The translations under genes were made by a program, and so were the position numbers. Source: Patescibacteria group bacterium (GTDB lineage: Bacteria > Patescibacteriota > WWE3 > UBA101185 > 2-01-FULL-41-18). From it: a stretch of DNA of 64,000 nucleotides. The stretch spans positions 9,992 through 73,991 of the forward strand of contig JBBTST010000002.1 in the NCBI GenBank assembly GCA_038064575.1. Reading direction: 5' to 3'. Numbering within the stretch: the stretch's first letter is position 1; each line of letters begins with the position of its first letter. The notes below the pieces were generated by a model. That model saw only the letters and a list, made by a program, of their open reading frames with translations, searched no databases and was not told the origin of the DNA. Below, in pieces: positions 360-26,341 of this stretch.

Positions 360-2480
360 GTGTTTTTTATGACTTTTAAAGAAAACGGTGTTCAGAAAGT
401 TTTATACTTTTGTTGTTATACACTCTTTTTTTTATCTTTAATCCAATTATTTAATCATATAGGTAATAGGGAACTAGATTTGAATTTATTTTATAATTCG
501 GACTCTTTGTCACATCCTGTAATATTTAAGGATTTGTTTGAGGATGGGTTTTCCTATTCCGGCTGGATGTTTTCAGATTCTCCAGCCTTTTTTCCGGACT
601 TTCTGTTTTATTCCTTTTTCCGAATTGTCACTGGAAACTTTCTTCTAGCCTCTTTACTTAACAGTCTAGCCATTTTCTTGTTAATATTTGTTTTTTTTGA
701 TCTTTTGCTGCGGGAAATAGTTAATCAGAACTCCTACTTGCTGAGGTCTTTTGCGCTGCTAATTGGAACTTTGTTATCTGTGTTAATGGGTGTTGGTAAA
801 GGCTTTCTTTTTTTTGTTCTTTTTCTCTCCCCGGATTTTCATGTGGGTACGTTGGCAATTTCAGTTTGTAGCTTGGTGTTGGTTATGATTTTTTTGAGAG
901 GTGGAAAAAAAAGATATTTATACTTACTTTTCTTTATTTCACTGTTAGTAGGTATTTTTGACAGGCTTTGGGTTATCCATTTTGTTGCGCCTATTATGTT
1001 AGCCTCAACGCTATTATTTATGCTTGGCAAAAACTACAGATTGAGGTTGTTGTACATGTTGGTTGTAGTACTGAGCTCTTTTTTGTTGGGTTGGCTCATT
1101 TATAAAGTTATTGTGCCTTTTCCTACCTCCCCAAGTCTTAAACTGGACATAGCAGTTTTTTTAAACTTGTTAAGGGATATAAGGTTGTTGCTTACTAGTA
1201 AGTACCTAACCATTAATGTTGCGAGTGTTGATTACAGATTCAAAAACACGGTTTTTCCTTTTGTCTGGGTAATAATAATCACTTTTTTTTCATCCCTGGC
1301 TCTAATCTTAAAAAAGATATTAAAGAAAGAATTCTTGCATGTCCTTACCACTATGGACTTTTTCCTTATTTTTTATATTTTTTTGGTGATTTGTGACTTT
1401 TTAGGAACTGTTGTCTCAGGGCAGTATGTAGCCTTGACTCACTCAAGGTATTTTACGCCGCTTTTTATTTATTCAATGATTTCATTTCTGGTATTTCTAC
1501 ATTTTTTAATAAACAGACTTCAAAAAACCTACATTGCTATGCTTTGGGTATTTTTGATAGTGAATCAATTGCTTTTAATAAAGCCAGGACTTTCAACTAA
1601 CAGTTTTAAAAGCTATAAATCTTTGGTTAATTACAGACCACAAATTGTAGATTGTTTAGATCGGGCCAAAGAAACGTATGAGTTAAAGTACGGCTTGGCT
1701 GATTATTGGAATGCCCATCAAATAACAATGTTTTCTATAACAGGGTTAAGAGTTTATCAAATTCATACTTACTATCCATCTCCAAACCCTTATCACTGGA
1801 ACAATAATGTGGATTGGTATCTAGGAGATTTAAAGAGCAAATATGAAAAGCCCACATATAACTTTGTTTTACCAACAAGATTAAATGAAGAATATATTAG
1901 GTTTGGTTTAGGGGAGCCGTACAAAAAAATTTATTGCTCTTCACAAGAGGTTTGGTTATACTCAGGCGACACGGAAGAAAGGGTAAAATACGCTATCTCA
2001 CCCAGAGTTCTTTTCAGACAATTAAGACTGCCCGGAAATAAACTTCTTATGAACGGAGACGAACTCAATAGTGTTTTGCTTGACCCATATGAAATTTTGA
2101 GAGCTTCTCAAACAGCCAAAGTTGGTAACAGTTTAGTCGCTGATAACATGCTTGCCAAGCCCGGAAATGTTGTGCTCGGTCCATATTTTTACATAGAAAA
2201 TGGGATTTATAAGTTCACCCTGCTTTATAATAATGATGCGCTACAAGCTCAAGGAGGTCCAGTTTTGACAATATCTAAAAACTCAAAGCCAAATTTTCTT
2301 AAACTACCGTTATGGAGCACAAAGAGCCAGGATAGAAAGCTAGAAGGTTATTTCCAGATAGCATCATCAAAGATGGGTATAGGTAGACTGTATAGAACGG
2401 AAGATATCCAATTTAAAATATATCATAGCGGTAATAGTACTTTGAAATTAATTAGTCTTGAGCTTGAAAGAGTTAGGTAG
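360..2480 (+). CDS. Polytopic membrane protein, about 10 or more TM helices followed by a roughly 300 aa soluble C-terminal domain; putative GT-C-like glycan-modifying enzyme
   Basis: 706 aa ORF. The N-terminal 400 aa are very hydrophobic (F/L/I-rich helices) and the C-terminus is hydrophilic. The gene lies in the glycosyltransferase locus. No catalytic motif was recognised. Confidence 0.5.
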   Translation: MFFMTFKENGVQKVLYFCCYTLFFLSLIQLFNHIGNRELDLNLFYNSDSLSHPVIFKDLFEDGFSYSGWMFSDSPAFFPDFLFYSFFRIVTGNFLLASLLNSLAIFLLIFVFFDLLLREIVNQNSYLLRSFALLIGTLLSVLMGVGKGFLFFVLFLSPDFHVGTLAISVCSLVLVMIFLRGGKKRYLYLLFFISLLVGIFDRLWVIHFVAPIMLASTLLFMLGKNYRLRLLYMLVVVLSSFLLGWLIYKVIVPFPTSPSLKLDIAVFLNLLRDIRLLLTSKYLTINVASVDYRFKNTVFPFVWVIIITFFSSLALILKKILKKEFLHVLTTMDFFLIFYIFLVICDFLGTVVSGQYVALTHSRYFTPLFIYSMISFLVFLHFLINRLQKTYIAMLWVFLIVNQLLLIKPGLSTNSFKSYKSLVNYRPQIVDCLDRAKETYELKYGLADYWNAHQITMFSITGLRVYQIHTYYPSPNPYHWNNNVDWYLGDLKSKYEKPTYNFVLPTRLNEEYIRFGLGEPYKKIYCSSQEVWLYSGDTEERVKYAISPRVLFRQLRLPGNKLLMNGDELNSVLLDPYEILRASQTAKVGNSLVADNMLAKPGNVVLGPYFYIENGIYKFTLLYNNDALQAQGGPVLTISKNSKPNFLKLPLWSTKSQDRKLEGYFQIASSKMGIGRLYRTEDIQFKIYHSGNSTLKLISLELERVR

Positions 2481-2507
2481 ATGGTACTATACTGACAACT
2501 TATAATT

Positions 2508-5500
2508 ATGTTTAAAAGGATTTTATCAAAACTTGTTAAATTCTTAATATCTTTAATATCTATAGAGTTACTTTTACTTCTAATTTTTAATTTGTTAGTT
2601 TTTTTGGGACTGCTAATGTTTAAAAGTCAGCTGGCCTATGGGGATTTGCCACCTTTTCCAGAGTCTTATCAGACAGCTTTTGAAGACTTTTTTTATGTTT
2701 GGAAAAATTTTTCCTTTGGTTTGTATAGATATCCAGGACAGTTACAACCACTTCTGCAGGGTCTATTACTCCTTCTTTTTGGCAGTCCTGTACTTGCCCA
2801 AAAAGTTTATATGTTTTTCCTACCTGTAATGGCATTTTTGGGTTTTAAGTACCTGCTGAAAAGCTCTTATAAGAGTGTGAGCAGAATATCCGGTTTTATA
2901 ACGGCTTTCTTTTACGCCTACAGCCCCATTTTTATTCAGGAATTCATGGGAGGAACTCTATACTCCACACTGCTCGGCTTTGCGCTTTTTCCTGTGGTCT
3001 TTGCAAAGTCCATTCAGTTGTATGAGGATTTCAACCTAAGAAGAGTATTAATTCTGGCTCTTATTTTGGGAGGTATAGTATCTTTTTACCCGCATTTTAT
3101 TGTGATTTATTCAATTTCAATGTTTGTACCTTTTGTATTAGACGTTCTTTTAAATAGATTTAATAACTTAAAGATTTGGTTAGGGTTTTTTTTAGTGGGA
3201 GTATTGGTTATAGTGCTAAATCCTATTTTTGTGTTAACCAGCTTTAACCTTGTTAATACTTCTTCCGGTGTGACGTCGTCTTCTTTTTCAGCAAATGTAG
3301 AAAATTTTTTGAATGATGTTCATTACACTTATTATTGGAGCACATTTGGTAACATTTTTAGATTTGGAAATAATAATAGTCCACACGGTTATTCTGAGCA
3401 AAGTTGGTGGACGTATCAATTCTACGCGATTGTAACTTTTGTATTTGGTTACTGTTTTATCTTTAGAAGGAAAAAATGGAATGGGGTTTTTTGGTTTTCA
3501 CTATTTCCTTCACTTATCTTAATTATGGGCTTTGTGTATTTTACCCATTTAAACAAAACAGATTGGTTGTTTAAGTTGTTCTCCCCACTTATTCTTTTTA
3601 GAAATCCTGCAAAGCTAACTTATTTATCATTCTTTTTCTTTTCACTTCTTTTCTTTGAAGCTCTAAATTTTGTAGAATCCAGATCAAAGACAGCCTTAGT
3701 AAAATATATATTTTTTGTTCCCATAAGCATAAGTATCCTCATTTATATTTGGCCTGTATTTACACAGGATTTGAGCTTATCAAAGTACAGATCAGGTTTC
3801 ACTCTACCAAATGTTTATAAGGAAGTTATATCAAGAGTGGAGAAGGGTGAAGGCAGAAATTTTTGGTTGCCATCCTCTCATGAAAGCACCTCAATCAAGT
3901 TGGCGTGGCTTGATCAAAATAAGTTAGAATCTCAAATTGGAGTAAATCAATTTAGCGATGATTATTTTGTGGACGAAATCATCAACCCGCTAAATGCCTC
4001 TTTACTTAAGAGTAAGGAGCAAGAAATGAAAAACCTTCTAAATATTGCTCAGGTTAAAAATGTTATTTTGTTGAAAGACAAAAAAGACAACATATCAACT
4101 GAAACTTTATTTGGGTCTGGAAGTATTGTTGGTGGAAGCCAGGTTTTAAGTTCCTATTTGGATTTCCTGCCAAAACTTCATGACACAAAGAGTTATTCTA
4201 TTTATCATAATGATACTTACTACCCCACTTTTTTTGTTCCAGATACTTTTGCGTATGTTGATGATGATGCCGTCTTTAACGGGTTTTTGAATACAATAAA
4301 TCCTGAAGCAAAAATAGCTCTGATTAAGAGTAGCTTTTTTTCAAGCTTTCCTTCAAGTAGTTTTTCAGTGATTTGGCCTTCAAAAAAACACACCAACTTT
4401 GTAATGAGTGGCTGGGACCCGCTTTGGATTTGGCCTAGTGTTAGTGTAGATCCTAGAAATGAGGCTGTTTATAGCCTTGTTAGATTAAAAGAAAACTTCA
4501 TAAAATTAAAAAATTCAGATTTTTCTGAAAGAATTGAAACTCTTTTGTGGCTTGCTTCCAAAAGAGTTGAGGAAGTGTCAGAATTTAATATTACTCAAGG
4601 TAACTTAAGATCTAAGATTCTTGCAGAATATTATGCTTCCATGAGTGGGGGTTTTATTTTACTTGAGGGTTATCCTTCCAAAACTGATTCTAGATATCAA
4701 AAATTCTTGAGGAAATATTCTGAGTTTTTAAAGAGGGGATTAGAAAAAGCAAATGTTGATGAGCAGGATGGAGAGTTGGGTTCAAAACTACAGGCACTTT
4801 TAAAGGAAGCACAGAAAGTTACTTTAAAATTTGATTATAATTGTGGTCTAGACATTTGTTTTTATGGCCAGGTTCCAAAAAGCGCAAATTATGAATTAAA
4901 TCTGGGTTTGGAATATAAAGGACAAGAGCTTATTGAAGCTGGTGCTGTTTTGTCATCCGTTGGTCTAATGGGTGAAAAGGTTCTAGCCATTCCTCTTAAG
5001 AAGGGTCCAATTCAGAACTTGGGGGAAGTTTATTTGGAGAAGGACCATTATTATGAGCTTGAAATAGCGTTTCCTCCAGGAGAAAACCTTGTTTCAGAGG
5101 GGCCTTGGATTGAAGAAATTGAGCAGGCCCCGCCTGATTGGAATAAAATTGATTTTATAAAGACTGACTCATACCTTTTCCCACTTTTGAGTAATAAGAA
5201 ATACTCTAAGGTAAGTCAAGTTATGCACAAAAAAATAAAATCAATTAATGAAAAAGGAAGCTTTAGACTTACTTTTGATTATTTGTTAGATAATGGGGAT
5301 CTTGGGTATGCGGTGGTTCAGAGAGATAAGAACACAGGTAATTATATACAAGCTATGGGGGGCAGGGTTTCCCCAAATGTCAAAAGCTTTGAGAACTGTT
5401 TGAATGAAAATTGCTTTTCTACTCTTAATAAAACTTTCCAAACATCCGGTTTGGGGGAAGATGCTAGGGTAATCTTTTTTGTTGCTTCAAACAACAAGCT

Positions 5501-5993
5501 TTCTAAATTGGCGACTATAAAAAATGTAGCTCTAGAGCAAGTACAGGACATAGCAATGCATCTTAAAGCGGCCGGTTTTACTGATTACAAACCGTTAAGC
5601 ATTAAGCCAAAGCTAGTAAAATTACGCCCCTTTTTATACAAAGTAGAGTTTGAAGAATTAACTTCTGAAATACCAGTGGTTTTTAATCAAAGCTTTCACA
5701 GAGGGTGGAAACTTTTTAGAACTGACACATGCAAGGGGTGGATTGTGGGTTTTATTCCAAGGTGCAGGTATTTTTCTTCAAATGAATATGATGAAAACCA
5801 TACTCGCATAAACGGATTTGCCAATGGATGGGTAATCAAACCACAGGACTCTACAAACATAAGTTTTTATATAATTTTTGTACCCCAAATCCATTTTTTT
5901 ATGAGTTTAATCTTCAGCTTAGTAGTTTTGATAGTGTTTTTACTTATCTATTTAAGGAGGAAAACCTTTGAGAGAAGGAATTTATGGACTTAA
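2508..5993 (+). CDS. Giant membrane protein (1161 aa): N-terminal multi-TM domain, roughly 700 aa extracytoplasmic domain, C-terminal single TM anchor; YfhO-like or GT-C-like architecture
   Basis: Long ORF with about 12 N-terminal hydrophobic helices, a long hydrophilic middle region, and a terminal hydrophobic segment (FYIIFVPQIHFFMSLIFSLVVLIVFLLIYL) followed by basic residues. Confidence 0.5.
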   Translation: MFKRILSKLVKFLISLISIELLLLLIFNLLVFLGLLMFKSQLAYGDLPPFPESYQTAFEDFFYVWKNFSFGLYRYPGQLQPLLQGLLLLLFGSPVLAQKVYMFFLPVMAFLGFKYLLKSSYKSVSRISGFITAFFYAYSPIFIQEFMGGTLYSTLLGFALFPVVFAKSIQLYEDFNLRRVLILALILGGIVSFYPHFIVIYSISMFVPFVLDVLLNRFNNLKIWLGFFLVGVLVIVLNPIFVLTSFNLVNTSSGVTSSSFSANVENFLNDVHYTYYWSTFGNIFRFGNNNSPHGYSEQSWWTYQFYAIVTFVFGYCFIFRRKKWNGVFWFSLFPSLILIMGFVYFTHLNKTDWLFKLFSPLILFRNPAKLTYLSFFFFSLLFFEALNFVESRSKTALVKYIFFVPISISILIYIWPVFTQDLSLSKYRSGFTLPNVYKEVISRVEKGEGRNFWLPSSHESTSIKLAWLDQNKLESQIGVNQFSDDYFVDEIINPLNASLLKSKEQEMKNLLNIAQVKNVILLKDKKDNISTETLFGSGSIVGGSQVLSSYLDFLPKLHDTKSYSIYHNDTYYPTFFVPDTFAYVDDDAVFNGFLNTINPEAKIALIKSSFFSSFPSSSFSVIWPSKKHTNFVMSGWDPLWIWPSVSVDPRNEAVYSLVRLKENFIKLKNSDFSERIETLLWLASKRVEEVSEFNITQGNLRSKILAEYYASMSGGFILLEGYPSKTDSRYQKFLRKYSEFLKRGLEKANVDEQDGELGSKLQALLKEAQKVTLKFDYNCGLDICFYGQVPKSANYELNLGLEYKGQELIEAGAVLSSVGLMGEKVLAIPLKKGPIQNLGEVYLEKDHYYELEIAFPPGENLVSEGPWIEEIEQAPPDWNKIDFIKTDSYLFPLLSNKKYSKVSQVMHKKIKSINEKGSFRLTFDYLLDNGDLGYAVVQRDKNTGNYIQAMGGRVSPNVKSFENCLNENCFSTLNKTFQTSGLGEDARVIFFVASNNKLSKLATIKNVALEQVQDIAMHLKAAGFTDYKPLSIKPKLVKLRPFLYKVEFEELTSEIPVVFNQSFHRGWKLFRTDTCKGWIVGFIPRCRYFSSNEYDENHTRINGFANGWVIKPQDSTNISFYIIFVPQIHFFMSLIFSLVVLIVFLLIYLRRKTFERRNLWT

Positions 5994-6322
5994 TTGATAA
6001 AACAAAAACTTATCTGACAGTTACAAATATTGCAAATGCTTGGCTTTTGATTGTTGTTGTAGGTTTGTTTTTATTGTTCTTTACTCGGTTTTCTCCAATT
6101 TTAGTTCTAACCCCTCTTTTTTTGTTATGGTTTTTGCTGTTATGTATTGACCAAAAACTTTTTGTCATAAATTTGATACTTACTTTCCTTTCTCTAATTA
6201 TTGCACTAATATGTCTGCTGTTTAATTTTTTATTTGTTTCAGAAGCTATGTTTTATGCATTTTTTTTACACTGTGTAATACTTATTTTGTATCAGTTAAT
6301 AACTGTGCTCAGGGAAAACTAA
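5984..6322 (+). CDS. Small 4-TM membrane protein (GtrA-like size and topology)
   Basis: 112 aa, four hydrophobic helices. It overlaps the upstream stop by 10 nt and sits inside the glycan operon. Confidence 0.4.
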   Translation: MDLIDKTKTYLTVTNIANAWLLIVVVGLFLLFFTRFSPILVLTPLFLLWFLLLCIDQKLFVINLILTFLSLIIALICLLFNFLFVSEAMFYAFFLHCVILILYQLITVLREN

Positions 6323-6324
6323 TT

Positions 6325-7962
6325 ATGGCTTTTATAATTGGGGGTTTAGATGATCAGTTGATTCTTTTGGTATGGGCTAATGTATCAAAACTATTCTTTG
6401 CCTTTAATAACAAGGCTTTTTACGATTTCTTTCTGTATAAGGAAGTTTTTTGGCCTTTGCTAAAACCTTTTGAGACCAATGAGCCCATTTTATGGTTGGT
6501 TATGTCTTTATGCCTCTCCATATTTGGAATAAATTTTTATAACTTCTTTCTTTTGTTCACTCTTGCAGCAGCTTTTACAGCAAGTTTTTACCTTTTTAAA
6601 GAATATAAGTTTGGGTTACTCTATTCTGTTGTCTTTACTTTTTCTTCCTATACATGGTCTCATTTAGGAATACATCTGGGGCTCTCTCAAATTTGGCTAC
6701 TTCCAGTATTTTACAAGATTTTTCTGGATGCATTAAAACTTAAATCTTTTCAAATTAAAAAGTTTTTTATAAGTGGAGTAATCTTAGCGTTAATTGCTTT
6801 AACCGCCAATTATTTAGCCTTTTTTATATTGCTGTCATTGTTTGCTGGAGTAGTTTTAATAGTAATATTACCGTCTAAAATTAAACTCTTTCCGGTGAGC
6901 CTGTTGGTGAAGGGGACAATGGTAACCTTTGTAGTTTTTGTTTCCATCTCAATTGCTACTTTATACCCTTTCATAAAAGCAAACTACTTTGACCCCGCCT
7001 TGAACGGCCCTAAAGCACAAATGATGGTAATAGATAGACCACTTTCAGACTTTTTCACATTTAGTACAAGACCCTGGTACTTTTTTATTCCTCCGCCGAG
7101 TAACCCAATCTTAGGGGGGCTAGGTCAAAGAATGATCTCAACAATTAAATCAACTAACTATTTTCTTGCCGATGACTATTTTGAGGGCGAGCACGCAGCA
7201 AGTTTTTATGGGTATTCTCTTTATATACTATTTGGTACTCTCTTTATTACCCTTGTCAAGAAAAAAAAAGTTCCCAAAGAATCCATATTTTGGTTGCTTC
7301 AAGCGTTGGTACTTTTTTTAATAGCACTGCCCCCTTTTATAAGTTTGAACGGTATTAAAATCTATACGCCAGGTTTCTTACTCTTCAAGTTTTTCCCTAT
7401 GTTTAGGGTCTCTACCAGATTAGGAATCTTTATACTATTCTTTTGTATTCTTGCTTTGGCTGAGTTAATTAAGGTTTATTATCCTTTGGTAGTGAGAAAA
7501 AGACTTTTTGTTTTTTGTGTCTTTACGGCTTTTATAGTGTCGATTATTGAGGTTTTTGTTCCGGTAAAAATATTTAAATATGAAGATCCTCCTGACGTAT
7601 ATGTTTATCTAAAAGCTAAGACTGATGGATCTACCTTTGTAGTATTTCCTTATTCAAAAACAAAAGAAGCACTTTTTTGGCTTCCTGTACACCAGAAGTT
7701 TTTATTAAATCCCAGAGGTGCTTTTTTTAAAAATTTTTATTCTGAGACTTTTACTAAAGCTTTAAATACAAATGAAGGCATTTTTAAACTTAAGGATTAT
7801 AATGTTAGGTATCTTATTGTGTTTAAGAATTCAAAAGAAGCTGATTTAAAGGAAATATTAACTCATCCGCTTCTTCAACTGGAAGCAGAATTTGAAGATT
7901 CCTATCTTTTGTTGGTAGGGGAGGATACCATTTATTCCCATGCAGAGGTAAGAAGTTATTGA
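6325..7962 (+). CDS. Polytopic membrane protein, putative GT-C-like glycosyltransferase
   Basis: 545 aa with many TM helices, an internal hydrophilic loop (…ANYFDPALNGPKAQMMVIDRPLSDFF…) and a C-terminal soluble domain. Same strand and tightly packed with neighbours. Confidence 0.45.
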   Translation: MAFIIGGLDDQLILLVWANVSKLFFAFNNKAFYDFFLYKEVFWPLLKPFETNEPILWLVMSLCLSIFGINFYNFFLLFTLAAAFTASFYLFKEYKFGLLYSVVFTFSSYTWSHLGIHLGLSQIWLLPVFYKIFLDALKLKSFQIKKFFISGVILALIALTANYLAFFILLSLFAGVVLIVILPSKIKLFPVSLLVKGTMVTFVVFVSISIATLYPFIKANYFDPALNGPKAQMMVIDRPLSDFFTFSTRPWYFFIPPPSNPILGGLGQRMISTIKSTNYFLADDYFEGEHAASFYGYSLYILFGTLFITLVKKKKVPKESIFWLLQALVLFLIALPPFISLNGIKIYTPGFLLFKFFPMFRVSTRLGIFILFFCILALAELIKVYYPLVVRKRLFVFCVFTAFIVSIIEVFVPVKIFKYEDPPDVYVYLKAKTDGSTFVVFPYSKTKEALFWLPVHQKFLLNPRGAFFKNFYSETFTKALNTNEGIFKLKDYNVRYLIVFKNSKEADLKEILTHPLLQLEAEFEDSYLLLVGEDTIYSHAEVRSY

Positions 7963-9352: not shown

Positions 9353-9357
9353 AAGCA

Positions 9358-19300: not shown

Positions 19301-19467
19301 TAGACCTGAAACTGAAAGTTGATCTAATCATGGACAAGTCTTTAGAGGAAGGCATTTCTTTGGAAGAGGGTAGGAATCTTCTGAATTATCAGAAAAATTT
19401 GGATATGTTAATAAAAATAAGAGAACAAAAGTTAAGTTCTTTTGATGAAAGTGGGGATAAGCAGTGA
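16378..19467 (+). CDS. Fusion membrane protein: O-antigen ligase/Wzy_C-like domain, PMT/ArnT-like GT-C domain, and a C-terminal soluble coiled-coil region
   Basis: 1029 aa. The Wzy_C-like signature …TNSRSAWIGFAAAITLIAL… sits around aa 235-255. A PMT_2/ArnT-like signature …ERNHLIPWDEAIYAKVAKNMVKNKEYFTLFWDSSKPWFEKPPLYMWFSALLIHVFGVSGFSAKLPSAIFGLGTLGVVYMIGRRLFG… sits around aa 485-570. The last roughly 150 aa (EKQLLDEAIIDLKLKVD…) are charged and coiled-coil-like. Confidence 0.7.
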   Translation: MFFSELFLVISIFVLCLFLAHEDLRSAFVFLLLVSPLLHKEVFSLVRWDLLPIRIVMLSILFVCGVKFIFFVKKKKLSQMKEYINDPLLILLCLLWGIRLLSLINSKNLGASLLIFSFFTTMVFLYILIVYLSKKYKEKFVLTSIKFYSLVSLATAIIALLQFYLDYKYKIIFGALWRIPGKLSRVGSVFWDVNHYAGYISAMIPIVIGLMLASKTLFSRLFYAISALIMTIVLLLTNSRSAWIGFAAAITLIALRVFIQKFGSKKLLLVFTLIAVVFVYGLKEFNIKESVFREKIRSYFQYRGDSFASHFMLLTGAYQIFESHPVLGGGYGSFFEHFKDTPVAATYYARDPAALSGRVPAHSIWGEVLSETGFVGFTIFVLLVLFILGTVYYSSRVLESKNSIGESNMIFSFGSAIVAFLVSGIFYSYNAEFFFIILFLTFVYARLVLGEKYDPFIIFSYISQKKSFLGVLILLISTFLIFSDLERNHLIPWDEAIYAKVAKNMVKNKEYFTLFWDSSKPWFEKPPLYMWFSALLIHVFGVSGFSAKLPSAIFGLGTLGVVYMIGRRLFGGLTGFLAAISLVSTVYFLRYSRIGMLDVSTTFFIALALYFYYFSLDSKEGRFRFLAYILSGLSCGLAFMTKGVVGLLPVFVILASEIYLLITKEKKLNLKSYWHFIFFFLVAFLTIALPWHLWMFVKYKYTFLNSYFGYHVVKRVTESIEDKGQPFFWYLVVLRTSMRLWFPVLLGSLGAFGFSVLGKKVGENTKFKSAVFQLFKDYNSRNSVLILIQFLVIFSFFSISVSKIIWYITPLYVSASLLVSYTIVYFYEKVLFRIDPERRLGYKFILVFLTASFGLFYLFTVRQLAYLSNDTGAKARIIMEKDRLVGLSPKLFYDRIEKPLAVYYSDGEIQEIDYTPLVDEISDAGFGESIVFITKQSRFDKLQTKFSNITLLASDEELRLGIAKSEKQLLDEAIIDLKLKVDLIMDKSLEEGISLEEGRNLLNYQKNLDMLIKIREQKLSSFDESGDKQ

Positions 19468-20628
19468 AATTGCAACCAAGGATAGAAAAGAGCTTCCTAG
19501 GTTTGAGAAAGCTACTCCAAAAACCCCAACAGTCTTAATCAAAACTAAGTTAAGAGTAAGTAGTATAAATATTTTCAATAGTTGAACGGTAAAAAGTACC
19601 TTTGTTTTATGAAAAATATAATATATGTTTTCCAAAAATGAGGAAGATGCCGTAAGGGCCGCGCTTATTGAAAGAATATAACTTAATTCTATTAAACTTT
19701 GATACTTGTCATTGAATATAAATTTTAATAAGGGTCCTGTTGCAGCAAGCATTACAAAAAGTGAAAGAACCAGATACACAAGCGGTAAAAAAACAGTTTT
19801 TGAGGTCAGTAGCCCCTTCTTTGTCTGTTGGGCGTTTTTTGGAAGGAAAACGGTAAACAAAGTTAAGGAAGCTAGTGAAAAAATAGTTGATATTTTTTCA
19901 GCCAAAGCAAAGGAGGCAACTTGAGTTAATCCTAAACTGGACTTGATCATTGTGCTATTTATCAAAGGTACTATAAGAATTAATGCTTGAGACACACCAG
20001 CAGGGGTTCCCAGTACAAGGAGCTGTTTTACCTTACCTTTTTCTTCAGACTCAGTCTTGGTTTGAATTGAACTGAGTGCTTTCTTGGAAAAAGCTAATGG
20101 AAATGCAACCAATAAAGAAGCCAGATAAAGAAGAGAGAACTGATAAAAGTTATAGGAAACAACTGAGGCTATGGCAAGTAATGCGAATACAGCTTTTACA
20201 ACTGCAGGCAGAAAGTTTATAAGAGAAGTCTTAAGAAAATCTTCTTTTAGTTGGAATAAGGCAAATAGGTAGTCGTTGATTAAATAGCCTATAAATCCTA
20301 AGGAAAGAGCAAAAAAAGTGTAAAAATCAGAAATTGAAAAAAAGTTGAGGAATGCAAAACACAAAACAAAAGCAACAAGGCCAAAATAAACCTTTAGTTT
20401 AAGAAGTGCTTTTGAATAGTCAGTTTTTTCTTGTATAGAGAGAGTAACAAACGCCGGAGTTGTACCAAGCTCTGTGATTTTGGCAAAGAAGACAAAGCTT
20501 GCTGTTAGTACAGCAAACTTAGCGTAGTCGTCTGTTGGAAGTAATCTTGCAGAGGCTATTAGAAAGATAAAACCCCCAATACCATTTGCTAGGTTGGATA
20601 CGCCAACCATGAGGAGATTTTTTGTCAT
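19432..20628 (-). CDS. Polysaccharide flippase (Wzx/MOP superfamily)
   Basis: About 12 TM helices throughout. The likely start is MTKNLLMVGVSNLANGIGGFIFL… (ATG at 20628); the ORF-track start at 20751 would overlap the divergent GT2 gene. The 3' end overlaps the upstream fusion gene by 36 nt. Confidence 0.65.
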   Translation of the reverse strand: MTKNLLMVGVSNLANGIGGFIFLIASARLLPTDDYAKFAVLTASFVFFAKITELGTTPAFVTLSIQEKTDYSKALLKLKVYFGLVAFVLCFAFLNFFSISDFYTFFALSLGFIGYLINDYLFALFQLKEDFLKTSLINFLPAVVKAVFALLAIASVVSYNFYQFSLLYLASLLVAFPLAFSKKALSSIQTKTESEEKGKVKQLLVLGTPAGVSQALILIVPLINSTMIKSSLGLTQVASFALAEKISTIFSLASLTLFTVFLPKNAQQTKKGLLTSKTVFLPLVYLVLSLFVMLAATGPLLKFIFNDKYQSLIELSYILSISAALTASSSFLENIYYIFHKTKVLFTVQLLKIFILLTLNLVLIKTVGVFGVAFSNLGSSFLSLVAISLLIPTFIKRT

Positions 20629-20683
20629 AGAGAAATCATAGCATTTTTGCCTAAAAGACCCTAAAAAAGGTAGAATTGTATGA

Positions 20684-21637
20684 ATGATCTCTTTAATATC
20701 CACACTTTTCAATGAAAATGAAAACCTGCAGTTGTTTCTTGATGATATCAAGAACCAAACTCAAAAACCTGAGGAGGTGGTTTTTGTTGATGCCGGTTCT
20801 ACTGATGGTTCGTTTGAGTTAATGGCAGGGAAGTTAAAAACACTAGTTAAAGAGGGTTGTAATAGATCTGAGGGAAGAAACCTTGCTATAAATGAAGCTA
20901 AAGGTGACGTTATTGCCGTTTGTGACGGAGGAACAAGACTTGATTCAAACTGGCTTAAAATTCTCACTGCTCATTTCAAAGATCCCAACATTCATGTGGT
21001 CTCAGGGTTTTTTAAACCGGATGCCAGAACCTTTTTTGAAAAATGTTTGTCTAGTGCCACAATCCCAATTTTAGAAGAAATAGAGGAGGAAAAGTTTTTG
21101 CCATCCTCAAGGTCTCTAGCATTCAGACGGCAAGTTTGGAAAGATGTGAAGGGTTATCCGCAATGGCTCCCGGTTTGTGAAGATTTAATCTTTGATATTA
21201 AATTGAAGAAGAACGGCTTTACCTTTAAGTTTGAACCAAAAGCTATAGTTTATTGGAGACCCAGAAAAAATATCCAGGCTTTTTTTAAACAATACTATAT
21301 GTATGCCAAAGGGGATGGGCACGCAAAGTTATGGTTTGCCAGGCATGTGATTAGATATACCGCTTATTTCACCGGCTTGCTTCTAATTTATTTATCTTTT
21401 AGCGTTTCCTTTTTGTGGCTGTTACCTTTTTTTGCAGCGCAACTTGGTTACTTTAGCAAGTTTTATTACAGATATATGGGGCATTTTGAACAAGATCCGG
21501 AGTATAAAATTGGCGCTGCGTTTCCTTTAATATCCTTTCTTGTTGTAACCGGGGATATTGCCAAAATGGTTGGCTATCCAGTGGGTATTTATGAGCGGGT
21601 TACTAAAAAGATTAAATTTGAAGAGTATAGAAAGTAA
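20684..21637 (+). CDS. Glycosyltransferase family 2 with C-terminal TM helices
   Basis: The N-terminal ISLISTLFNENENLQLFLDDI…VVFVDAGSTDGS fits the GT2 pattern (I-S-x-I-x-P-x-x-N-E … hhhhDxxSxD). The C-terminus is hydrophobic (FTGLLLIYLSFSVSFLWLLPFF). Confidence 0.75.
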   Translation: MISLISTLFNENENLQLFLDDIKNQTQKPEEVVFVDAGSTDGSFELMAGKLKTLVKEGCNRSEGRNLAINEAKGDVIAVCDGGTRLDSNWLKILTAHFKDPNIHVVSGFFKPDARTFFEKCLSSATIPILEEIEEEKFLPSSRSLAFRRQVWKDVKGYPQWLPVCEDLIFDIKLKKNGFTFKFEPKAIVYWRPRKNIQAFFKQYYMYAKGDGHAKLWFARHVIRYTAYFTGLLLIYLSFSVSFLWLLPFFAAQLGYFSKFYYRYMGHFEQDPEYKIGAAFPLISFLVVTGDIAKMVGYPVGIYERVTKKIKFEEYRK

Positions 21638-21639: not shown

Positions 21640-22560
21640 ATGGTAGATGTTTCAGTACTGATTTTGAATTATAAGTCTAAGGAGTGGGTTTGGAGGAATC
21701 TTACAGCTTTGAAGCAGTCAATTGAATATACTCAAAAGAAGAATGTTACTTTTGAGGTCATAGTTATTGATGGTACTGAGGGCGGTGACGGGACTTGTCC
21801 TATGGTATGGGAAAATTTTAAAGAGTTTTCTTGTTTGGACCTTAAGAAGAATTTGGGTTTTCCAAGTGGAAACAACCAAGGCTTAAAAGTGGCAAAAGGT
21901 AGGTACATTTTGCTACTTAACCCTGATGCATTAGTTGAGGACAACACACTTGCTCAAATGGTGGAGTTTATGGATTTAAGAACTGATGTAGGTGTTGCTA
22001 CCTGTAAGCTTGTGCTATTAAAGACGGGGAAAATTGATCCGGCATCCCACAGAGGTGTGCCTACCCCATGGGCTTCCCTTATGTACTATACTAAGCTTGA
22101 GGCAATCTTTCCTAGATCCAAGTTGTTTGGAGGGTATCATATGGGTTGGGAGGATTTAGAGAGAGAGCATGAAATTGGTGCGTGCGCAGGGTCATTTATG
22201 ATGATAAGGAGGCAGGCTTTGGAAGCTATTGGTGGAAAATTTGATGAAGCATATTATATGTATGCAGAGGATATTGATACCTGTTTTAGGATACTTAAAA
22301 AAGGCTGGAAGATAATGTATTATCCTTATGTTAAATGTTTTCATTATAAAGGGTCCAATTCTGGTATAAAAAAGGAAACTCAAAAAGAAACTTTGGTGAG
22401 TAAAGAGGGTAAGATTAAAGCAATAAATGCCTTTTGGGATGACAATAAGTTGTTTTTTAATAAACATCTTAAGTCCCATCTCCCGCTTTTTGTGACTTAT
22501 CTTGTGTATATAGGGGTGTATGTTAAGAAATGGATTGCGCTTAAGAGATTGCATGTATAG
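21640..22560 (+). CDS. Glycosyltransferase family 2
   Basis: VSVLILNYKSKEWVWRNL…FEVIVIDGTEGGDG…LLLNPDALVEDNTL shows the GT2 DxD-type organisation. Confidence 0.75.
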   Translation: MVDVSVLILNYKSKEWVWRNLTALKQSIEYTQKKNVTFEVIVIDGTEGGDGTCPMVWENFKEFSCLDLKKNLGFPSGNNQGLKVAKGRYILLLNPDALVEDNTLAQMVEFMDLRTDVGVATCKLVLLKTGKIDPASHRGVPTPWASLMYYTKLEAIFPRSKLFGGYHMGWEDLEREHEIGACAGSFMMIRRQALEAIGGKFDEAYYMYAEDIDTCFRILKKGWKIMYYPYVKCFHYKGSNSGIKKETQKETLVSKEGKIKAINAFWDDNKLFFNKHLKSHLPLFVTYLVYIGVYVKKWIALKRLHV

Positions 22561-22581: not shown

Positions 22582-23733
22582 ATGACTTCTGAAATTAGAG
22601 TAGCAATTGTGCATGATGATTTGATTCAGTTTGGTGGGGCTGAGAAAGTGTTTATGGCTCTCCTTGATCTTTATCCTTCTGCTTCTGTTTATACCTCCGT
22701 GATCTCAACCGAATGGAAAGATATACTCCAGAAGAAAAAGATCAATGTTTCAACTTCCTTTATGCAGAGCCTTATAAATGCGGTTTCCTGGAATAGATTT
22801 TATTCAACTTTCTTATTTCATCTGATTGCCTTTGAACGATTTGATTTGTCTTCTTTTGACCTTGTAATTTCTTCCTCCTCAAGATTTGCTCATGGCGTAA
22901 TCACAAAGCCCGATACCAAACACATTTGCTATATGCATTCTCCTGGGAGAATGTTTTGGGAGCAATCAAAGTATTTTGAGAATGAAAAACTAAGTAAAAA
23001 TATCTTTGGAAGAATTGTTTATACTTTGGGTTCTTTTCCGTTGTCTTTTATGAGGCTTTGGGATTATGCCGCTTCTCAAAGAGTAGACATGTTTGTATCT
23101 AACTCTATAGGTGTGCACAATAAAATTACAAGATTTTATCAGAGAGATTCTTCTGTTATCTATCCTTTTTGTGATGTTTCTTACTTTACAGAGCAAGCTT
23201 CTGAGGAAACCGGTTCCAAAGGAGAGTATGGGGAGTTTTATTTGGTGTTATCAAGACTTATTTCTTGGAAGAAAATTGAGATTGCTATTGAGGCGTGTAA
23301 GAAAACAAACAACAAACTCATAATAGCGGGTGATGGTCCTGATAGAAAACGCCTTGAAAAGCTAGCTGGGTCAAACTGCACATTTCTGGGTTTTGTGGAT
23401 GAACCTCAGAAGAAAAAGCTTCTAAGAGATGCTAAAGCTCTTATTCTCACACAGGAAGAGGATTTTGGGCTAACAAGCCTTGAGGCAATGGCTTCAGGAA
23501 CTCCTGTAATAGCATATGGCTTAGGCGGTGCATTGGAAACGGTTGTACCGGGTAACACAGGTGAGTTTTTTTCTCCTCAGACGAGCGCCGCTTTGGCTTT
23601 AATTTTGGAAAAGTTTTCAAGGGATACTTACAAAAGTGAAGTCAGTTTAGCAAGAGCAAAGGAATTTGATAAAACCGTCTTTTTAGGTAAAATGAAGGCC
23701 TTGATTGAAAGCTTCTATGTACCCAAAAATTAA
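22582..23733 (+). CDS. Glycosyltransferase family 1 (GT4)
   Basis: EDFGLTSLEAMASGTPVIAYGLGGALETV is the GT4 signature. An extended -10 (TGGTATAAT at 22563-22571) lies just upstream. Confidence 0.8.
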   Translation: MTSEIRVAIVHDDLIQFGGAEKVFMALLDLYPSASVYTSVISTEWKDILQKKKINVSTSFMQSLINAVSWNRFYSTFLFHLIAFERFDLSSFDLVISSSSRFAHGVITKPDTKHICYMHSPGRMFWEQSKYFENEKLSKNIFGRIVYTLGSFPLSFMRLWDYAASQRVDMFVSNSIGVHNKITRFYQRDSSVIYPFCDVSYFTEQASEETGSKGEYGEFYLVLSRLISWKKIEIAIEACKKTNNKLIIAGDGPDRKRLEKLAGSNCTFLGFVDEPQKKKLLRDAKALILTQEEDFGLTSLEAMASGTPVIAYGLGGALETVVPGNTGEFFSPQTSAALALILEKFSRDTYKSEVSLARAKEFDKTVFLGKMKALIESFYVPKN

Positions 23734-24340
23734 ACGGCTGATGGATATAGCTATATCTTCAACTGCTCTTTTGCTATTTTTTCCTTTTGCTGCCATTTTG
23801 ATGCTTATGATTTTTATAGAAGATAAAGCCTCTCCAATATACCGACAACCAAGAGTGGGAAGGCATAGAAAGCTTTTTAGTTTTTATAAATTTAGATCTA
23901 TGGTGAAAAATGCGGATGAACTTTTATTTTCTAATCCCAGCTTTTTGGAAAGGCTTAGAAGCGGCAATCATAAGATGAAAGATGATCCGAGAATAACAAG
24001 AATTGGAAAATTTATAAGAAAATTTAGTATTGATGAGTTTCCTCAGTTTATAAATGTGTTGATGGGAGATATGAGTTTTGTAGGCCCAAGGCCCTTCAGA
24101 CCTGATGAACTTGAAAAATATGAGAAAAGTGGAAAAGTGTTAAAAGATGCCGTAGACAAGATTTTATCAGTTAAACCGGGAATTACAGGGCTGTGGCAAA
24201 CCGGAGGCAGGTCTGAACTCTCATTTGATGATAGGATTAATATAGAGCTTAAATATGCCACACATTGCTCTCTTATGTTGGATCTGTATATAATCTTTAA
24301 GACGCCGATTGCTGTCTTTCAAGCAAAGGGGGCCTTGTAA
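23717..24340 (+). CDS. Initiating phosphoglycosyl transferase (bacterial sugar transferase, WbaP/PglC C-terminal-domain type)
   Basis: KRLMDIAISSTALLLFFPFAAILMLMIFIEDKASPIYRQPRVG…FYKFRSM…DEFPQFINVLMGDMSFVGPRP is the hallmark of the Bac_transf family. The start may be 23705 or 23717. Confidence 0.85.
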   Translation: MYPKIKRLMDIAISSTALLLFFPFAAILMLMIFIEDKASPIYRQPRVGRHRKLFSFYKFRSMVKNADELLFSNPSFLERLRSGNHKMKDDPRITRIGKFIRKFSIDEFPQFINVLMGDMSFVGPRPFRPDELEKYEKSGKVLKDAVDKILSVKPGITGLWQTGGRSELSFDDRINIELKYATHCSLMLDLYIIFKTPIAVFQAKGAL

Positions 24341-24364
24341 TTAATCGTTAAGGAAAATGAGTCT

Positions 24365-26341
24365 ATGACAATCTCAAATTTTTGGAAACCGAGTACTAAT
24401 TTTAAACTTCCTTTTGGTACTGATTTTGAATCCCTTGATCCTAAGAGAAAAAAGCTATTGAAAGTTCTTGGTATAGTGGGAGCTTCGTTTTTTGCGCTTG
24501 CTTTGGTTGTTGCGATTCTTCTTTTTGTTTTTGTTATCAAGCCTTCCTTAGCCGTCTTGTCCCAAGTAAATAAGCTTAAGGAAGATCAGATGCTTGTGCA
24601 AAAAGCTTTTAAAAACCAGGATATAGATGCTATTAATCTGTCTTTGGAAACTCTTAAAAATGATCTGGAAACCCTAAGAAATGTAAGAGACGCTTCCTTT
24701 CCCTGGGCGGCAAAATTTGGACCGTTTGTGAATTATTACACTGATTCAAATCATTTTATTACTGCGGGAACCTTGGCCGTTGATGCACTTAAGGAATTTG
24801 TTGTTGTTGCTGAACCCTTTGCTGATGCTGCCGGCTTTAAGAAAAATGATATTGTTATTACTGATAGCAGTGCCCCATCGGGTTTTGCGGAGGCCTTTGC
24901 AACTTGGGTAAGAATAATGCCGGAGGTTGCAGGTAATATGGATGGGGTAATTGATAAGTTTGACAAGGTAGGTGATGAACTTTCTCTGGTTGATGCTAGG
25001 CGCTATCCGCAGTCTATAAGCGGCTTTCCTGTGAGATCAAACATAGAGGCTGCGCAGCAGTATTTAACACAGGCTTCTGAATATGGCCCAGATATTAAAG
25101 CTGCCTTAACTATAATACCTCCTCTCCTTGGGGTGGGTCAGGAAAAGAGGTACGCAATAATAATGCAAAACGATGCAGAGATTAGGCCAACAGGGGGTTT
25201 TTGGACCAATTATGCTACATTTAGGATCTTAAACGCAGCTTTAAACTCCGATTTCTCCTCCAAAGACATGTATTCAATGGATGAGATTATTGCAACCACT
25301 GATACCATTTACACATCTCCTTTCCCAAAGCCTTTGGCTCCTTATAGAGACTTTCTAAAAGTAGAGCATACTTATGCAAGAGATGCTAACTTTTCTCCTG
25401 ACTTTGTAACTGCAGTTGATAGCTGGATGTGGTATTACAAGTTTGTTGGAAGAATACAACCTCTTGAGGCAAAGCCAATCAATGGGGTTTTTGCTATTGA
25501 CACACATGTTATTGAAGAGTTGTTAAGAGTTACAGGTCCTGTTGATGTAAATGGGGTTTCCTACAGTGCCGACAATGTTGTTTTGGAACTTGAGAAAATC
25601 GCGAGTCTTGGTTTGAAGGAACAACAGGGTAGAAAGAAGGTTTTGGGAGATTTGATGGAATCCATGCTTATTAACATGTATAGGTCTGAGAGTAATTTGT
25701 GGCCAAAGTTTGTGGAAACTGGAATTAGGCTTGCTGTGGAGAAGCACGCTTTTGCCTATGTTTTCCCAACTCAGGATGAGCAGACTGTAAGAGCTCAGGA
25801 GCTTCTTGAAAAGTATAATTTTTCAGGTCGTATTCAGGAGACTAAAGGTGAAGATTATTCTTTTGTGGTGAGCACCAATCTTGGAGGGGATAAAACAAAT
25901 ACTTTTGTGACTAAGGAAGTGGAGCACAAGATTTTAGAGGAAAACGGTAAATGGGTTCATGATGTGACAATTGATTACAAATACGGACAGCCAAAACCTG
26001 GGTATGAACCTTTAGTCACTGTTTATAGAGACTGGATTAGGGTATATGCGCCTTTAGGAGCAAAGCTCTTGGTTTTAGAGGGAAGCGATGCAAAAACGGA
26101 AGCTGATACTGGGGAAGAAAGAGGCAAAGTGTATTTTGCGGGACATTTAACGCTTGCTCCAAACGAGTCAAAAACAATCAGATTTAAATATGAGTTGCCA
26201 GATGGTGTTGTAAAAAGTGGTTTGTATTCCGTCTATTTGCAAAAACAGGGTGGGACAAGTGATGACTTGCATAAAGTTACATTTAACGGCAGAACGATGG
26301 AGGAAAAACTTGTTACTGATAAGACTCTTACTTTCAGATAA
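24365..26341 (+). CDS. N-terminally membrane-anchored extracytoplasmic protein (658 aa), unknown function, last gene of the glycan locus
   Basis: Single N-terminal TM (VLGIVGASFFALALVVAILLFVFVI) followed by a coiled-coil segment and a large hydrophilic domain. No motif recognised. Confidence 0.5.
   Translation: MTISNFWKPSTNFKLPFGTDFESLDPKRKKLLKVLGIVGASFFALALVVAILLFVFVIKPSLAVLSQVNKLKEDQMLVQKAFKNQDIDAINLSLETLKNDLETLRNVRDASFPWAAKFGPFVNYYTDSNHFITAGTLAVDALKEFVVVAEPFADAAGFKKNDIVITDSSAPSGFAEAFATWVRIMPEVAGNMDGVIDKFDKVGDELSLVDARRYPQSISGFPVRSNIEAAQQYLTQASEYGPDIKAALTIIPPLLGVGQEKRYAIIMQNDAEIRPTGGFWTNYATFRILNAALNSDFSSKDMYSMDEIIATTDTIYTSPFPKPLAPYRDFLKVEHTYARDANFSPDFVTAVDSWMWYYKFVGRIQPLEAKPINGVFAIDTHVIEELLRVTGPVDVNGVSYSADNVVLELEKIASLGLKEQQGRKKVLGDLMESMLINMYRSESNLWPKFVETGIRLAVEKHAFAYVFPTQDEQTVRAQELLEKYNFSGRIQETKGEDYSFVVSTNLGGDKTNTFVTKEVEHKILEENGKWVHDVTIDYKYGQPKPGYEPLVTVYRDWIRVYAPLGAKLLVLEGSDAKTEADTGEERGKVYFAGHLTLAPNESKTIRFKYELPDGVVKSGLYSVYLQKQGGTSDDLHKVTFNGRTMEEKLVTDKTLTFR

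Follow-up and report, generated by a model that had tools for sequence, protein, structure and literature searches.

A lineage-conserved glycosyltransferase cassette of WWE3 (Katanobacteria) as a candidate envelope-glycan assembly line

The Patescibacteria (Candidate Phyla Radiation, CPR) are mostly uncultured bacteria with genomes of about 1 Mb, many of which are thought to be attached to host cells. Such a lifestyle makes the surface central to their biology, and we know of no description of the chemistry of that surface in CPR. The DNA of a WWE3 bacterium analysed here (contig JBBTST010000002.1) raises the question of what a cell of this kind builds with a run of 18 tightly packed open reading frames (ORFs) rich in glycosyltransferases. 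These genes, lettered A to R in Table 1, occupy positions 360-26341 of the window, which is the whole 64-kb stretch under analysis (1-64000). A sequence-only reading of the same DNA had judged that the locus is not a textbook O-antigen or capsule cluster and that it represents a large investment for a streamlined genome, and both judgements stand. Present results establish the locus as a cassette conserved within the WWE3 lineage, and most likely it serves to build, by way of Wzx, a glycan on an undecaprenyl carrier, which glycosyltransferases of the GT-C type then extend or decorate on the outer side of the membrane. The product may be destined for the wall, which is the favoured destination, or for surface proteins.

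Conservation of the cassette across WWE3

The sequence-only reading had left it to synteny to decide whether the locus is conserved or hypervariable, and loci from both genomes and metagenomes show it to be conserved. A genome scan with the D family found 23 WWE3 loci, in about 15 of which the genes B-(small ORF)-D-E-H-J-K-L-M are present in the same order and orientation. About 30 metagenome contigs carry the series E-H-J-K-L-Wzx, followed by one to three variable glycosyltransferases and then by P, the initiating transferase, the DUF4012 protein, recO and proS. Sufficient upstream sequence was available for 39 metagenome loci and sufficient downstream sequence for 35. On the upstream side, K and J were present in every locus (39/39 each), H in 36 and E, which is 43-53% identical across these loci, in 33. 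On the downstream side, Wzx (M) was present in 32 of the 35, on the minus strand in 28 of them, together with P in 32, Q in 30 and R in 30; R is followed by recO in 26 loci and by proS in 23. The core proteins are 35-55% identical and B only 20-30%, a low value that is as expected for an exposed domain. Proteins identical to those of this DNA are annotated to a metagenome-assembled genome of a "Patescibacteria group bacterium". Relatives of D in genomes come almost only from WWE3, including the complete RAAC2 genome (CP006914), and among 40 homologues of D all those that are named belong to Patescibacteria/WWE3.

The distance between L and Q ranges from 1.1 to 9 kb and is filled by differing GT4 and GT2 genes on either strand. 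N and O of this window, found in 1/35 and 9/35 metagenome loci respectively, belong to this variable island, and this genome has A, F, G and I as additions of its own. F-like genes occur in a minority of loci only, in five of them in place of E. This replacement suggests a modular swapping of GT-C enzymes around a fixed core of GT4 enzymes and L. In five loci (L083, L085, L090, L092 and L109) an F-like GT-C of the PMT_2 type precedes H-J-K-L where E would otherwise stand, sometimes accompanied by a second L-like gene. Since order and content are kept and the variable island is small, the locus is a conserved housekeeping-like block rather than a hypervariable serotype locus.

Table 1. Genes of the glycosyltransferase locus and selected flanking genes, with positions in the window
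Gene	Position	Strand	Description
Epimerase, 5' part	1..311	-	NAD-dependent sugar epimerase/dehydratase, 341 aa in full; start codon ~311, runs off the window start
A	360..2480	+	706 aa, polytopic, ~11 transmembrane segments and ~290-aa C-terminal outer domain; candidate GT-C
B	2508..5993	+	1161-aa GT-C glycosyltransferase with AftD-like architecture (structure model and Foldseek)
C	5984..6322	+	112 aa, four hydrophobic segments; translationally coupled to D
D	6325..7962	+	545-aa GT-C glycosyltransferase; family without matching Pfam model (structure model and Foldseek)
E	7994..9352	+	452 aa, polytopic; probable GT-C; conserved cassette core
F	9358..10938	+	526-aa ArnT/PMT_2-like GT-C; accessory insertion in this genome
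G	10948..12045	+	365 aa, polytopic, at least 6 transmembrane segments; possible GT-C; accessory insertion
H	12032..13330	+	432-aa GT4 with TuaH-like C-terminal half; core; Glycos_transf_1 2.8e-10
I	13418..13897	+	159 aa, transmembrane segments at N- and C-terminus and outer loop; not conserved
J	14106..15242	+	378-aa GT4; core; Glycos_transf_1 3e-26, Glyco_transf_4 3e-19
K	15214..16371	+	385-aa GT4; core; Glycos_transf_1 6e-20
L	16378..19467	+	1029-aa fusion, ~20 transmembrane segments: Wzy_C and ArnT/PMT-type GT-C (Pfam)
M	19432..20751	-	439-aa ORF, Wzx-type flippase (MOP/Polysacc_synt, 1.5e-13, 51 bits); sole opposite-strand gene
N	20684..21637	+	317-aa GT2; Glycos_transf_2 5.5e-14; variable island
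O	21640..22560	+	306-aa GT2; Glyco_tranf_2_3 4e-16; variable island
P	22582..23733	+	383-aa GT4; core; Glycos_transf_1 3.4e-27
Q	23705..24340	+	211-aa polyprenyl-phosphate sugar-1-phosphate transferase of PglC/WbaP catalytic-domain type, one transmembrane segment; initiating enzyme
R	24365..26341	+	658-aa DUF4012 protein (1.4e-18), N-terminally anchored, extracytoplasmic; single transmembrane segment 40-58
recO	26350-27102		follows R; RecO Pfam match; then ProRS
LCP	33111..34148	-	LytR-CpsA-Psr protein; LytR_cpsA_psr 4.6e-30; outside 360-26341
PGM/PMM	34177..35598	+	PGM_PMM_I-IV domains

Predicted membrane glycosyltransferases of the locus

The six large polytopic proteins on which the sequence-only reading was built (706, 1161, 545, 452, 526 and 365 aa) have 6-11 transmembrane segments each in a hydropathy scan, with estimates of ~11 for A, ~8 plus a C-terminal anchor for B, ~7 for D, ~7 for E, ~9 for F and at least 6 for G, and the fusion protein L has ~20 in its two fused modules. 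These figures agree with the N-terminal membrane module of ~7-13 helices that marks GT-C_A enzymes (STT3/PglB, ArnT, PMT, AftA/D, Emb, DPY19). Their proposed GT-C character is secure for B and D, by fold, and for F and the C-terminal half of L, by profile, and A, E and G have suggestive profile links only. Pfam and NCBIfam searches with A, B, C, D, E, G and I at E-values up to 10 returned nothing but one sub-threshold NCBIfam match of E, and sequence-profile searches of the PDB, run with the family alignments of A, B, D and E and with the single sequences of G and R, yielded no match or noise only.

The assignment of B and D comes from structure models (AF2) compared with the PDB by Foldseek. 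The model of D (pLDDT 91.8, pTM 0.91) had GT-C enzymes as all of its top 22 matches, namely STT3, DPY19, AftA, AglB, AftD, ArnT and PglB (E 1e-5 to 6e-3, TM-score 0.38-0.49), below which the list fell off sharply into noise, where transporters appear at E>0.4. The model of B (pLDDT 65.6, with 70-90 in the transmembrane core) matched AftD best (6wby/6w98, E ~1e-5, full-length alignment), followed by STT3, PglB, ArnT and AftA. In both models the predicted helix pattern agrees with the hydropathy scan. The sequence-only reading was to be abandoned if the large membrane proteins turned out to be transporters or to lack GT-C homologues and folds; B and D match GT-C enzymes only, and the reading was not refuted. 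TM-scores of 0.37-0.5 for B and D against solved GT-C structures denote fold-level similarity only. A function of the two proteins as N-oligosaccharyltransferases, suggested by STT3 as top match, was rejected on this ground and on the absence of any conserved WWDxG-type motif from the alignments.

B has the AftD-type architecture of a GT-C membrane module (~1-430), a large outer domain with carbohydrate-binding modules and a C-terminal transmembrane anchor (1131-1149). The outer domain includes helical portions and beta-sandwich portions resembling a carbohydrate-binding module (CBM), the latter matching CBM28/27/4 by Foldseek, and CBM_4_9 was found in two homologues. By sequence, B was not placed in the AftD family, as B itself has no Pfam match, PF11847 (GT-C_AftD) included, and PF11847 was matched by one of 16 family members, at 7e-4. 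The homology between the two proteins covers residues 28-593 of B and the whole of D (hhalign 97.5-99.2%), so B corresponds to a D-like module joined to a large outer domain and a C-terminal anchor, and profile alignment identifies the two as paralogues. The motif G45-D46-L47, which follows the first transmembrane helix (TM1), is invariant in the B family. D starts straight at a conserved IIGGLxDQ, without the TM1 of B and of other GT-C enzymes, and D10-Q11 is near-invariant in its family.

Directly upstream of D, 12 of the 23 genome loci have a small hydrophobic ORF (80-135 aa, four hydrophobic segments), which often ends at or overlaps the start codon of D. These C-type ORFs have in common an LLW segment and, ahead of their last transmembrane segment, the motif G..AE[KR]xA. 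C matches no Pfam model, GtrA included, even at E-values up to 10. By analogy, C could supply TM1 in trans for D, serve as an analogue of a GtrA/ArnE-like lipid-sugar flippase or act as a GacJ-like helper, and roles of this kind for small partners (GtrA-type flippase, GacJ) have been described (PMC8035078).

The fusion protein L consists of a Wzy_C half (~1-455) and an ArnT/PMT-type GT-C (~470-860), followed by a C-terminal soluble domain. Wzy_C (PF04932) covers O-antigen ligases, O-oligosaccharyltransferases and some polymerases, and PMT_2 and PMT are PF13231 and PF02366. Scores in L are well defined for Wzy_C (62.2 bits, gathering score 31.7, residues 226-381), PMT_2 (77.9 bits, gathering score 26.1) and PMT (54.5 bits, gathering score 22.7), and L matches ArnT 5ezm at 3.9e-19. 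Ten orthologues all share H362-S-x9-G373-x-x-G376, R240, R303 and H310 in the Wzy_C half and, in the PMT half, D494-E495 (WDEAIY), a likely counterpart of the loop-1 acidic motif. The H-S-x9-G-x-x-G motif with its Arg and His invariants is typical of Wzy_C proteins acting as ligases or O-oligosaccharyltransferases, as defined in the WaaL literature. A scan with the L family found the full-length fusion in 129 metagenome stretches. Neither this cassette, nor a Wzy_C-PMT_2 fusion, nor any GT-C enzyme of CPR or Katanobacteria is described in the literature searched.

F falls just under the gathering score of PMT_2 (25.6 bits against 26.1), and the profile of its family, unlike those of A, B, D and E, touched the PDB, matching ArnT 5ezm at E 0.0068. 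Its hhalign value against the PMT half of L is 98.7% (E 2.5e-16), and five F sequences have no invariant Asp in loop 1. E matches the NCBIfam LA_3751/LA_3752 putative glycosyltransferase family (1.3e-18, 67 bits, under the cut-off of 200) and reaches an hhalign value of 76.6% to the PMT half of L and at most 0.2% to the controls; after TM1, D41 is invariant in its family and E40 near-invariant. Against the F and B families the A family reaches 75-82% and 66-72%, respectively, and against the controls 0.3-6.5%, and D48, after TM1, is invariant in it. For G, aligned without homologues, the value is 53% against the PMT half of L and 0.2% against the controls; G has no Pfam, NCBIfam or PDB match and no relatives in the metagenome scan. 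The controls were two polytopic profiles, the Wzy_C half of L (at most 7%) and a 21-sequence Wzx profile (at most 0.3%). As the intermediate scores of A, E and G lie far above those of the polytopic controls, they do not reflect simple hydrophobic bias, and acidic residues just after the predicted TM1 are invariant in A, B, E and L, where they may correspond to those conserved in the first extracytoplasmic loop of GT-C_A enzymes. On this sequence evidence, E and A are probable GT-C enzymes and G is a possible one.

A looks like an orphan in a word-indexed search, which returned A alone, but it is not one: exhaustive searching with HMMER recovered 1487 cluster representatives at E<1e-3, most of them ~540 aa long and one named from a Spirochaetia metagenome-assembled genome. 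No Pfam or NCBIfam match was found for A, nor a Pfam domain in 40 sampled members of its family, and A is absent from every related locus in the genome and metagenome scans. I likewise has no counterpart in related loci and no Pfam match.

Proposed assembly of the glycan and its probable destination

The domain calls of the sequence-only reading, comprising four GT4 enzymes, two GT2 enzymes, a Wzx flippase on the minus strand, a fusion of Wzy_C and PMT, a Bac_transf protein and an anchored 658-aa protein (DUF4012), were all reproduced by Pfam. The initiating transferase Q is supported by Bac_transf (1e-62, 211 bits), and by EPS_sugtrans (2e-74) and WbaP (1e-65) over the C-terminal catalytic domain only. 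H matches TuaH at 2e-27, which is sub-threshold, and the true start of M is likely to give 392 aa (19432-20610), according to the gene call. R always stands beside Q in related loci and has no PDB relative, and it may be an auxiliary of assembly or export; DUF4012, a domain enriched in CPR and Gram-positives, has been noted in a Bifidobacterium capsular polysaccharide/exopolysaccharide (EPS) cluster (PMC6744442).

Of the Wzx/Wzy pathway, the initiating enzyme (Q) and the flippase (M) are present in the locus, and a dedicated Wzy polymerase with its co-polymerase was not found there, the only Wzy_C domain being that of L. No ORF of the locus has a Wzz/polysaccharide co-polymerase domain, and R has one transmembrane helix where such co-polymerases have two. 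As claimed beforehand, no Wzz, ABC transporter or sugar-nucleotide gene lies within 360-26341; a phosphoglucomutase/phosphomannomutase-type gene (PGM/PMM) and a gene for a LytR-CpsA-Psr (LCP) protein were found 7-8 kb downstream.

We hold with moderate confidence that the locus is a WWE3 (Katanobacteria) envelope-glycan assembly line that makes a wall polysaccharide. Q would start the glycan on undecaprenyl phosphate, the GT4 enzymes H, J, K and P and the GT2 enzymes N and O would extend it at the inner face of the membrane, and M would move it outward. The Wzy_C half of L might then polymerise the flipped unit or pass it on en bloc. The active sites of L, B, D and F, and perhaps of A, E and G, are predicted to lie at the outer face, where these GT-C enzymes would elongate, branch or decorate the glycan using sugars linked to polyprenyl phosphate, and the CBM-like outer domain of B may hold the growing polymer. 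The nearby LCP enzyme would finally join the product to peptidoglycan. The conserved core of B, C, D, E, H, J, K, L, M, P, Q and R would make an invariant backbone, and strain-specific side chains might be supplied by the L-Q island (Wzx, N and O here; 1-9 kb), the F and G insertion, A and the block upstream of the window. There is monoderm precedent for the combination of Wzx/Wzy and LCP with extracellular decoration by GT-C enzymes, for large GT-C enzymes with carbohydrate-binding domains, and for the role of LCP proteins in the attachment of wall polymers (PMC8035078).

The closest logic among known systems, by analogy, appears to be that of mycobacterial arabinogalactan/lipoarabinomannan (LAM) assembly together with that of Gram-positive secondary wall polysaccharides with multi-component transmembrane glycosylation. 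The mycobacterial machinery comprises a WecA primer enzyme, cytoplasmic glycosyltransferases, a flippase, the GT-C enzymes AftA-D and EmbA-C and an LCP ligase. The genes of the present locus likewise indicate a lipid-linked primer inside, several paralogous GT-C enzymes outside and an LCP protein nearby, and B has the AftD layout of a membrane module, a carbohydrate-binding outer domain and a C-terminal transmembrane helix, with AftD as its best structural match. The differences are that the initiating enzyme here is of the PglC/WbaP type and not of the WecA type, that Wzx and Wzy_C are present, that B has no PF11847 match, that genes for decaprenyl-phospho-arabinose or -mannose donors were not found here and that the host is a Patescibacterium and not an actinobacterium.

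Gram-positive comparators include B. anthracis GtsABC, L. lactis CsdAB/CD/EF and S. pyogenes GacI-J-K-L (PMC8035078). They resemble the locus in Wzx/Wzy-type assembly on undecaprenyl phosphate, in LCP attachment and in decoration outside the membrane by GT-C enzymes that are of the PMT_2 type or have no Pfam match, and C agrees in size and topology with their small partners of 3-4 transmembrane helices (GtrA-type flippase, GacJ). In those systems, however, each GT-C is paired with an adjacent membrane-linked GT-A enzyme making the undecaprenyl-phosphate sugar, and no conserved partner of this kind is recognisable here; up to seven GT-C genes per operon and a Wzy_C-PMT_2 fusion also set the present locus apart from them. 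The ArnT/PMT transferases (GT83/GT39), which depend on lipid-phosphate sugars, are homologous to the C-terminal half of L and to F, and their loop-1 acidic motif appears to be kept in L. As CPR have no lipid A (PMC3812714), the acceptor must differ from that of ArnT.

Several points weigh against a wall polysaccharide built in this way. The sequence-only reading implied glycosylation from lipid-linked donors, but no pathway to such monosaccharide donors was found in the locus, the rest of the window or the upstream block. In the same three regions no polyprenyl-phosphate-sugar synthase (GtrB/CsbB/Ppm1-like GT2, UbiA-type DPPR synthase) was recognised, and a search for GtrB/DPMS-like donor synthases failed to identify N, O or the upstream GT2 as one. 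This missing synthase is the weakest link of the proposed mechanism. N is a weak candidate for a membrane-linked synthase, with the right shape of a GT2 followed by two C-terminal transmembrane helices (232-250 and 278-296), but it shows no GtrB/DPMS likeness in the PDB or in naming-model matches and is not conserved. The locus has no chain-length regulator, the LCP gene of this window lies 7 kb away, and the ligase-type His motif of L is no less compatible with en bloc transfer to protein or lipid than with polymerisation. Of the seven GT-C assignments, those of A, E and G are only suggestive, by sequence, and the chemistry of the product cannot be deduced from the genes.

A more specific version of the wall polysaccharide reading, which we put forward tentatively, is that the B-C-D-E-H-J-K-L-M...P-Q-R block builds a wall heteropolysaccharide that defines the WWE3 lineage, largely outside the membrane, with three parts for which we know of no described precedent. 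The first would be a new GT-C family, B/D, the short form of which does not have TM1 and would be coupled to the four-helix protein C, which might supply TM1 in trans or deliver the lipid-linked donor. The second would be the obligatory fusion of Wzy_C with ArnT/PMT, coupling en bloc transfer to the addition of single sugars, and the third a DUF4012 protein constantly paired with the initiating transferase. Such a system might be likened to a Patescibacterial counterpart of mycobacterial arabinogalactan logic.

General protein O-glycosylation is the main alternative, and a rather doubtful one. The Wzy_C half of L would here be an O-oligosaccharyltransferase of the PglL/PilO type, acting en bloc on S-layer proteins, pilin or other surface proteins, and O-linked sugars on proteins would be added or extended by the remaining GT-C enzymes and by the PMT-like half of L. 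Actinobacterial and eukaryotic PMTs add O-linked sugars to proteins, and the PMT/PMT_2 domain of L carries the DE motif. The PglL/PilO systems of Neisseria, Acinetobacter and Burkholderia also combine an initiating transferase, a few glycosyltransferases, Wzx and one Wzy_C enzyme with no Wzz, and the locus has a single Wzy_C protein, no Wzz and no second candidate polymerase. The His/Arg invariants of L, read as a WaaL-type motif, fit a ligase or O-oligosaccharyltransferase, a sub-threshold match to a "putative O-glycosylation ligase" model agrees with this, and conservation without hypervariability would be in keeping with a machinery for general glycosylation. For WWE3, Kantor et al. have suggested glycoproteins or a glycosylated S-layer (PMC3812714). 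However, the known PglL/PilO systems are those of diderms, consist of a handful of genes and do not include GT-C_A enzymes, and their needs are far exceeded by seven GT-C-type and six to eight soluble glycosyltransferases. The CBM-like outer domain and AftD-like architecture of B point to a polysaccharide acceptor, an LCP enzyme is encoded nearby, and no acceptor protein is known here or encoded in the locus.

A membrane-anchored lipoglycan, resembling lipomannan/LAM or a glycosylated lipoteichoic acid, is unlikely. The GT-C enzymes would in that case polymerise polyprenyl-phosphate sugars onto a glycolipid anchor, and the part of the locus with Wzx and the initiating transferase would give a separate primer or cap. 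AftD and AftA are among the best structural matches of B and D, several GT-C paralogues share one operon as in the mycobacterial lipomannan/LAM and arabinogalactan machinery, and there are weak matches to GT4 enzymes resembling glycolipid-anchor synthases (IagA/BgsA, Mgs). None of these anchor-synthase matches is above threshold, though, the donor synthase was not found, and the initiating transferase, Wzx and Wzy_C argue for a product linked to undecaprenyl diphosphate.

A horizontally acquired, strain-variable locus for a capsule or O-antigen-like glycan, as is typical of Wzx/Wzy serotype loci, is highly improbable. It would account for the variable L-Q island and the genome-specific insertions A, F, G and I, and for a GC content of 0.31-0.35 over 1-12 kb, which is lower than in the rest of the window. 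The dip is deepest over genes D-G (0.31-0.32 over 6000-12000, with a strongly negative AT skew, against 0.37-0.40 downstream), where it coincides with Phe/Leu/Ile-rich membrane proteins and is probably a coding bias of these, yet F and G are also genome-specific insertions. Against such an origin, 12 core genes are kept at 35-55% protein identity over dozens of contigs and are anchored to recO-proS, and this synteny largely refutes a hypervariable O-antigen-like locus.

That the large membrane proteins are transporters or other proteins unrelated to glycosyltransferases, set within an ordinary cluster of cytoplasmic glycosyltransferases, is scarcely credible, for although A, B, D, E and G have no Pfam matches and PDB sequence-profile searches were empty or gave noise, the fold searches with B and D place transporters in the noise and the profile links lead to ArnT/PMT, away from both controls (Wzx and Wzy_C), which refutes it for B, D, F and L and leaves it a formal possibility for A, E and G.

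Surroundings of the locus and its meaning for CPR envelopes

Intergenic spacing in the locus ranges from -29 to +31 nt, except for the 87 nt and 208 nt that flank gene I. The sequence-only reading had drawn an almost wholly same-strand locus of overlapping or abutting genes from the epimerase to recO, and 17 of the 18 genes are indeed on the plus strand; the epimerase is on the minus strand, and the locus continues for ~9 kb further upstream. At the window edge, the minus-strand six-frame translation reads MKNIIIGGAGFIGSNL..., which is the epimerase, and the full gene, with PF01370/GDP_Man_Dehyd/RmlD_sub_bind, was found in the source contigs L028-L031, which come from Hainich groundwater assemblies. 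The epimerase is divergent from the main operon and is the first gene of a further minus-strand glycan-modification block outside the window. On the source contig this neighbourhood (L028, 1-9940) contains genes for a radical SAM protein, two GT4 enzymes, a hexapeptide-acetyltransferase/methyltransferase fusion, a GT4, a GT2, a methyltransferase and the epimerase. The locus thus measures at least 26 kb, or ~36 kb if this block is counted. In another locus (L003) a similar radical-SAM/glycosyltransferase/methyltransferase set lies upstream of the cassette.

A scan for promoters and terminators gave counts no higher than in shuffled sequences, so operon boundaries could not be drawn. The only plausible break inside the operon is a terminator-like hairpin at 14054-14077, in the 208-nt gap between I and J. 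No Rfam family, tRNA included, scored above its gathering score in the whole window.

Downstream, recO and proS are directly followed by mraZ, rsmH (MraW) and a class B penicillin-binding protein (PBP) at 29321-32724, which form the head of a dcw-like division and wall cluster. The LCP and PGM/PMM genes are a divergent pair; the LCP protein is a candidate ligase that would attach the undecaprenyl-diphosphate-linked product to peptidoglycan, and PGM/PMM possibly provides a sugar-activation step for the pathway. A class A PBP with transglycosylase and transpeptidase domains is encoded at 53508-55907, between uvrB (51349-53421) and uvrA (55965-58913). The PBPs, mraZ/rsmH and the LCP protein indicate a peptidoglycan wall and the enzyme class for attaching undecaprenyl-diphosphate-linked polymers to it. 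A complete peptidoglycan pathway was not found in WWE3 RAAC2 by Kantor et al., who reported WWE3 to have no lipopolysaccharide genes and to be unusually rich in glycosyltransferases (PMC3812714). For this genome, the same PBPs of both classes, mraZ/rsmH and LCP led us to reject a role of the locus as a substitute for peptidoglycan.

Other genes of the window include uvrC (60692-62020), a 609-aa transglutaminase-core protein on the opposite strand (58822-60651) and a 409-aa protein (47915-49144), the sole recognisable domain of which is a C-terminal winged-helix Trans_reg_C at residues 332-405. Three ORFs, at 38146-38679 (minus strand), 43850-44989 and 45876-46676 (177, 379 and 266 aa), had no Pfam match at E<=0.001, and the ORF at 38765-39847 had a weak, sub-threshold DIT1_PvcA match only.

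No known principle is overturned by this locus, the parts of which are familiar and recognisable and the overall logic of which has monoderm precedents. What is new is how widely the locus is conserved in its lineage and how many GT-C modules it has, together with the fusion and with the families that no Pfam model matches. The locus offers testable candidates in two GT-C families unmatched by Pfam (B/D, and A with its ~1,500 cluster representatives), in the widespread Wzy_C-PMT_2 fusion and in the fixed pair of initiating transferase and DUF4012 protein, which should be useful for work on CPR envelopes, on GT-C enzymology and on DUF4012, a domain found also in Bifidobacterium EPS clusters. 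The gene order kept across WWE3 and the housekeeping neighbours point to a core envelope function in these bacteria rather than to a serotype island.

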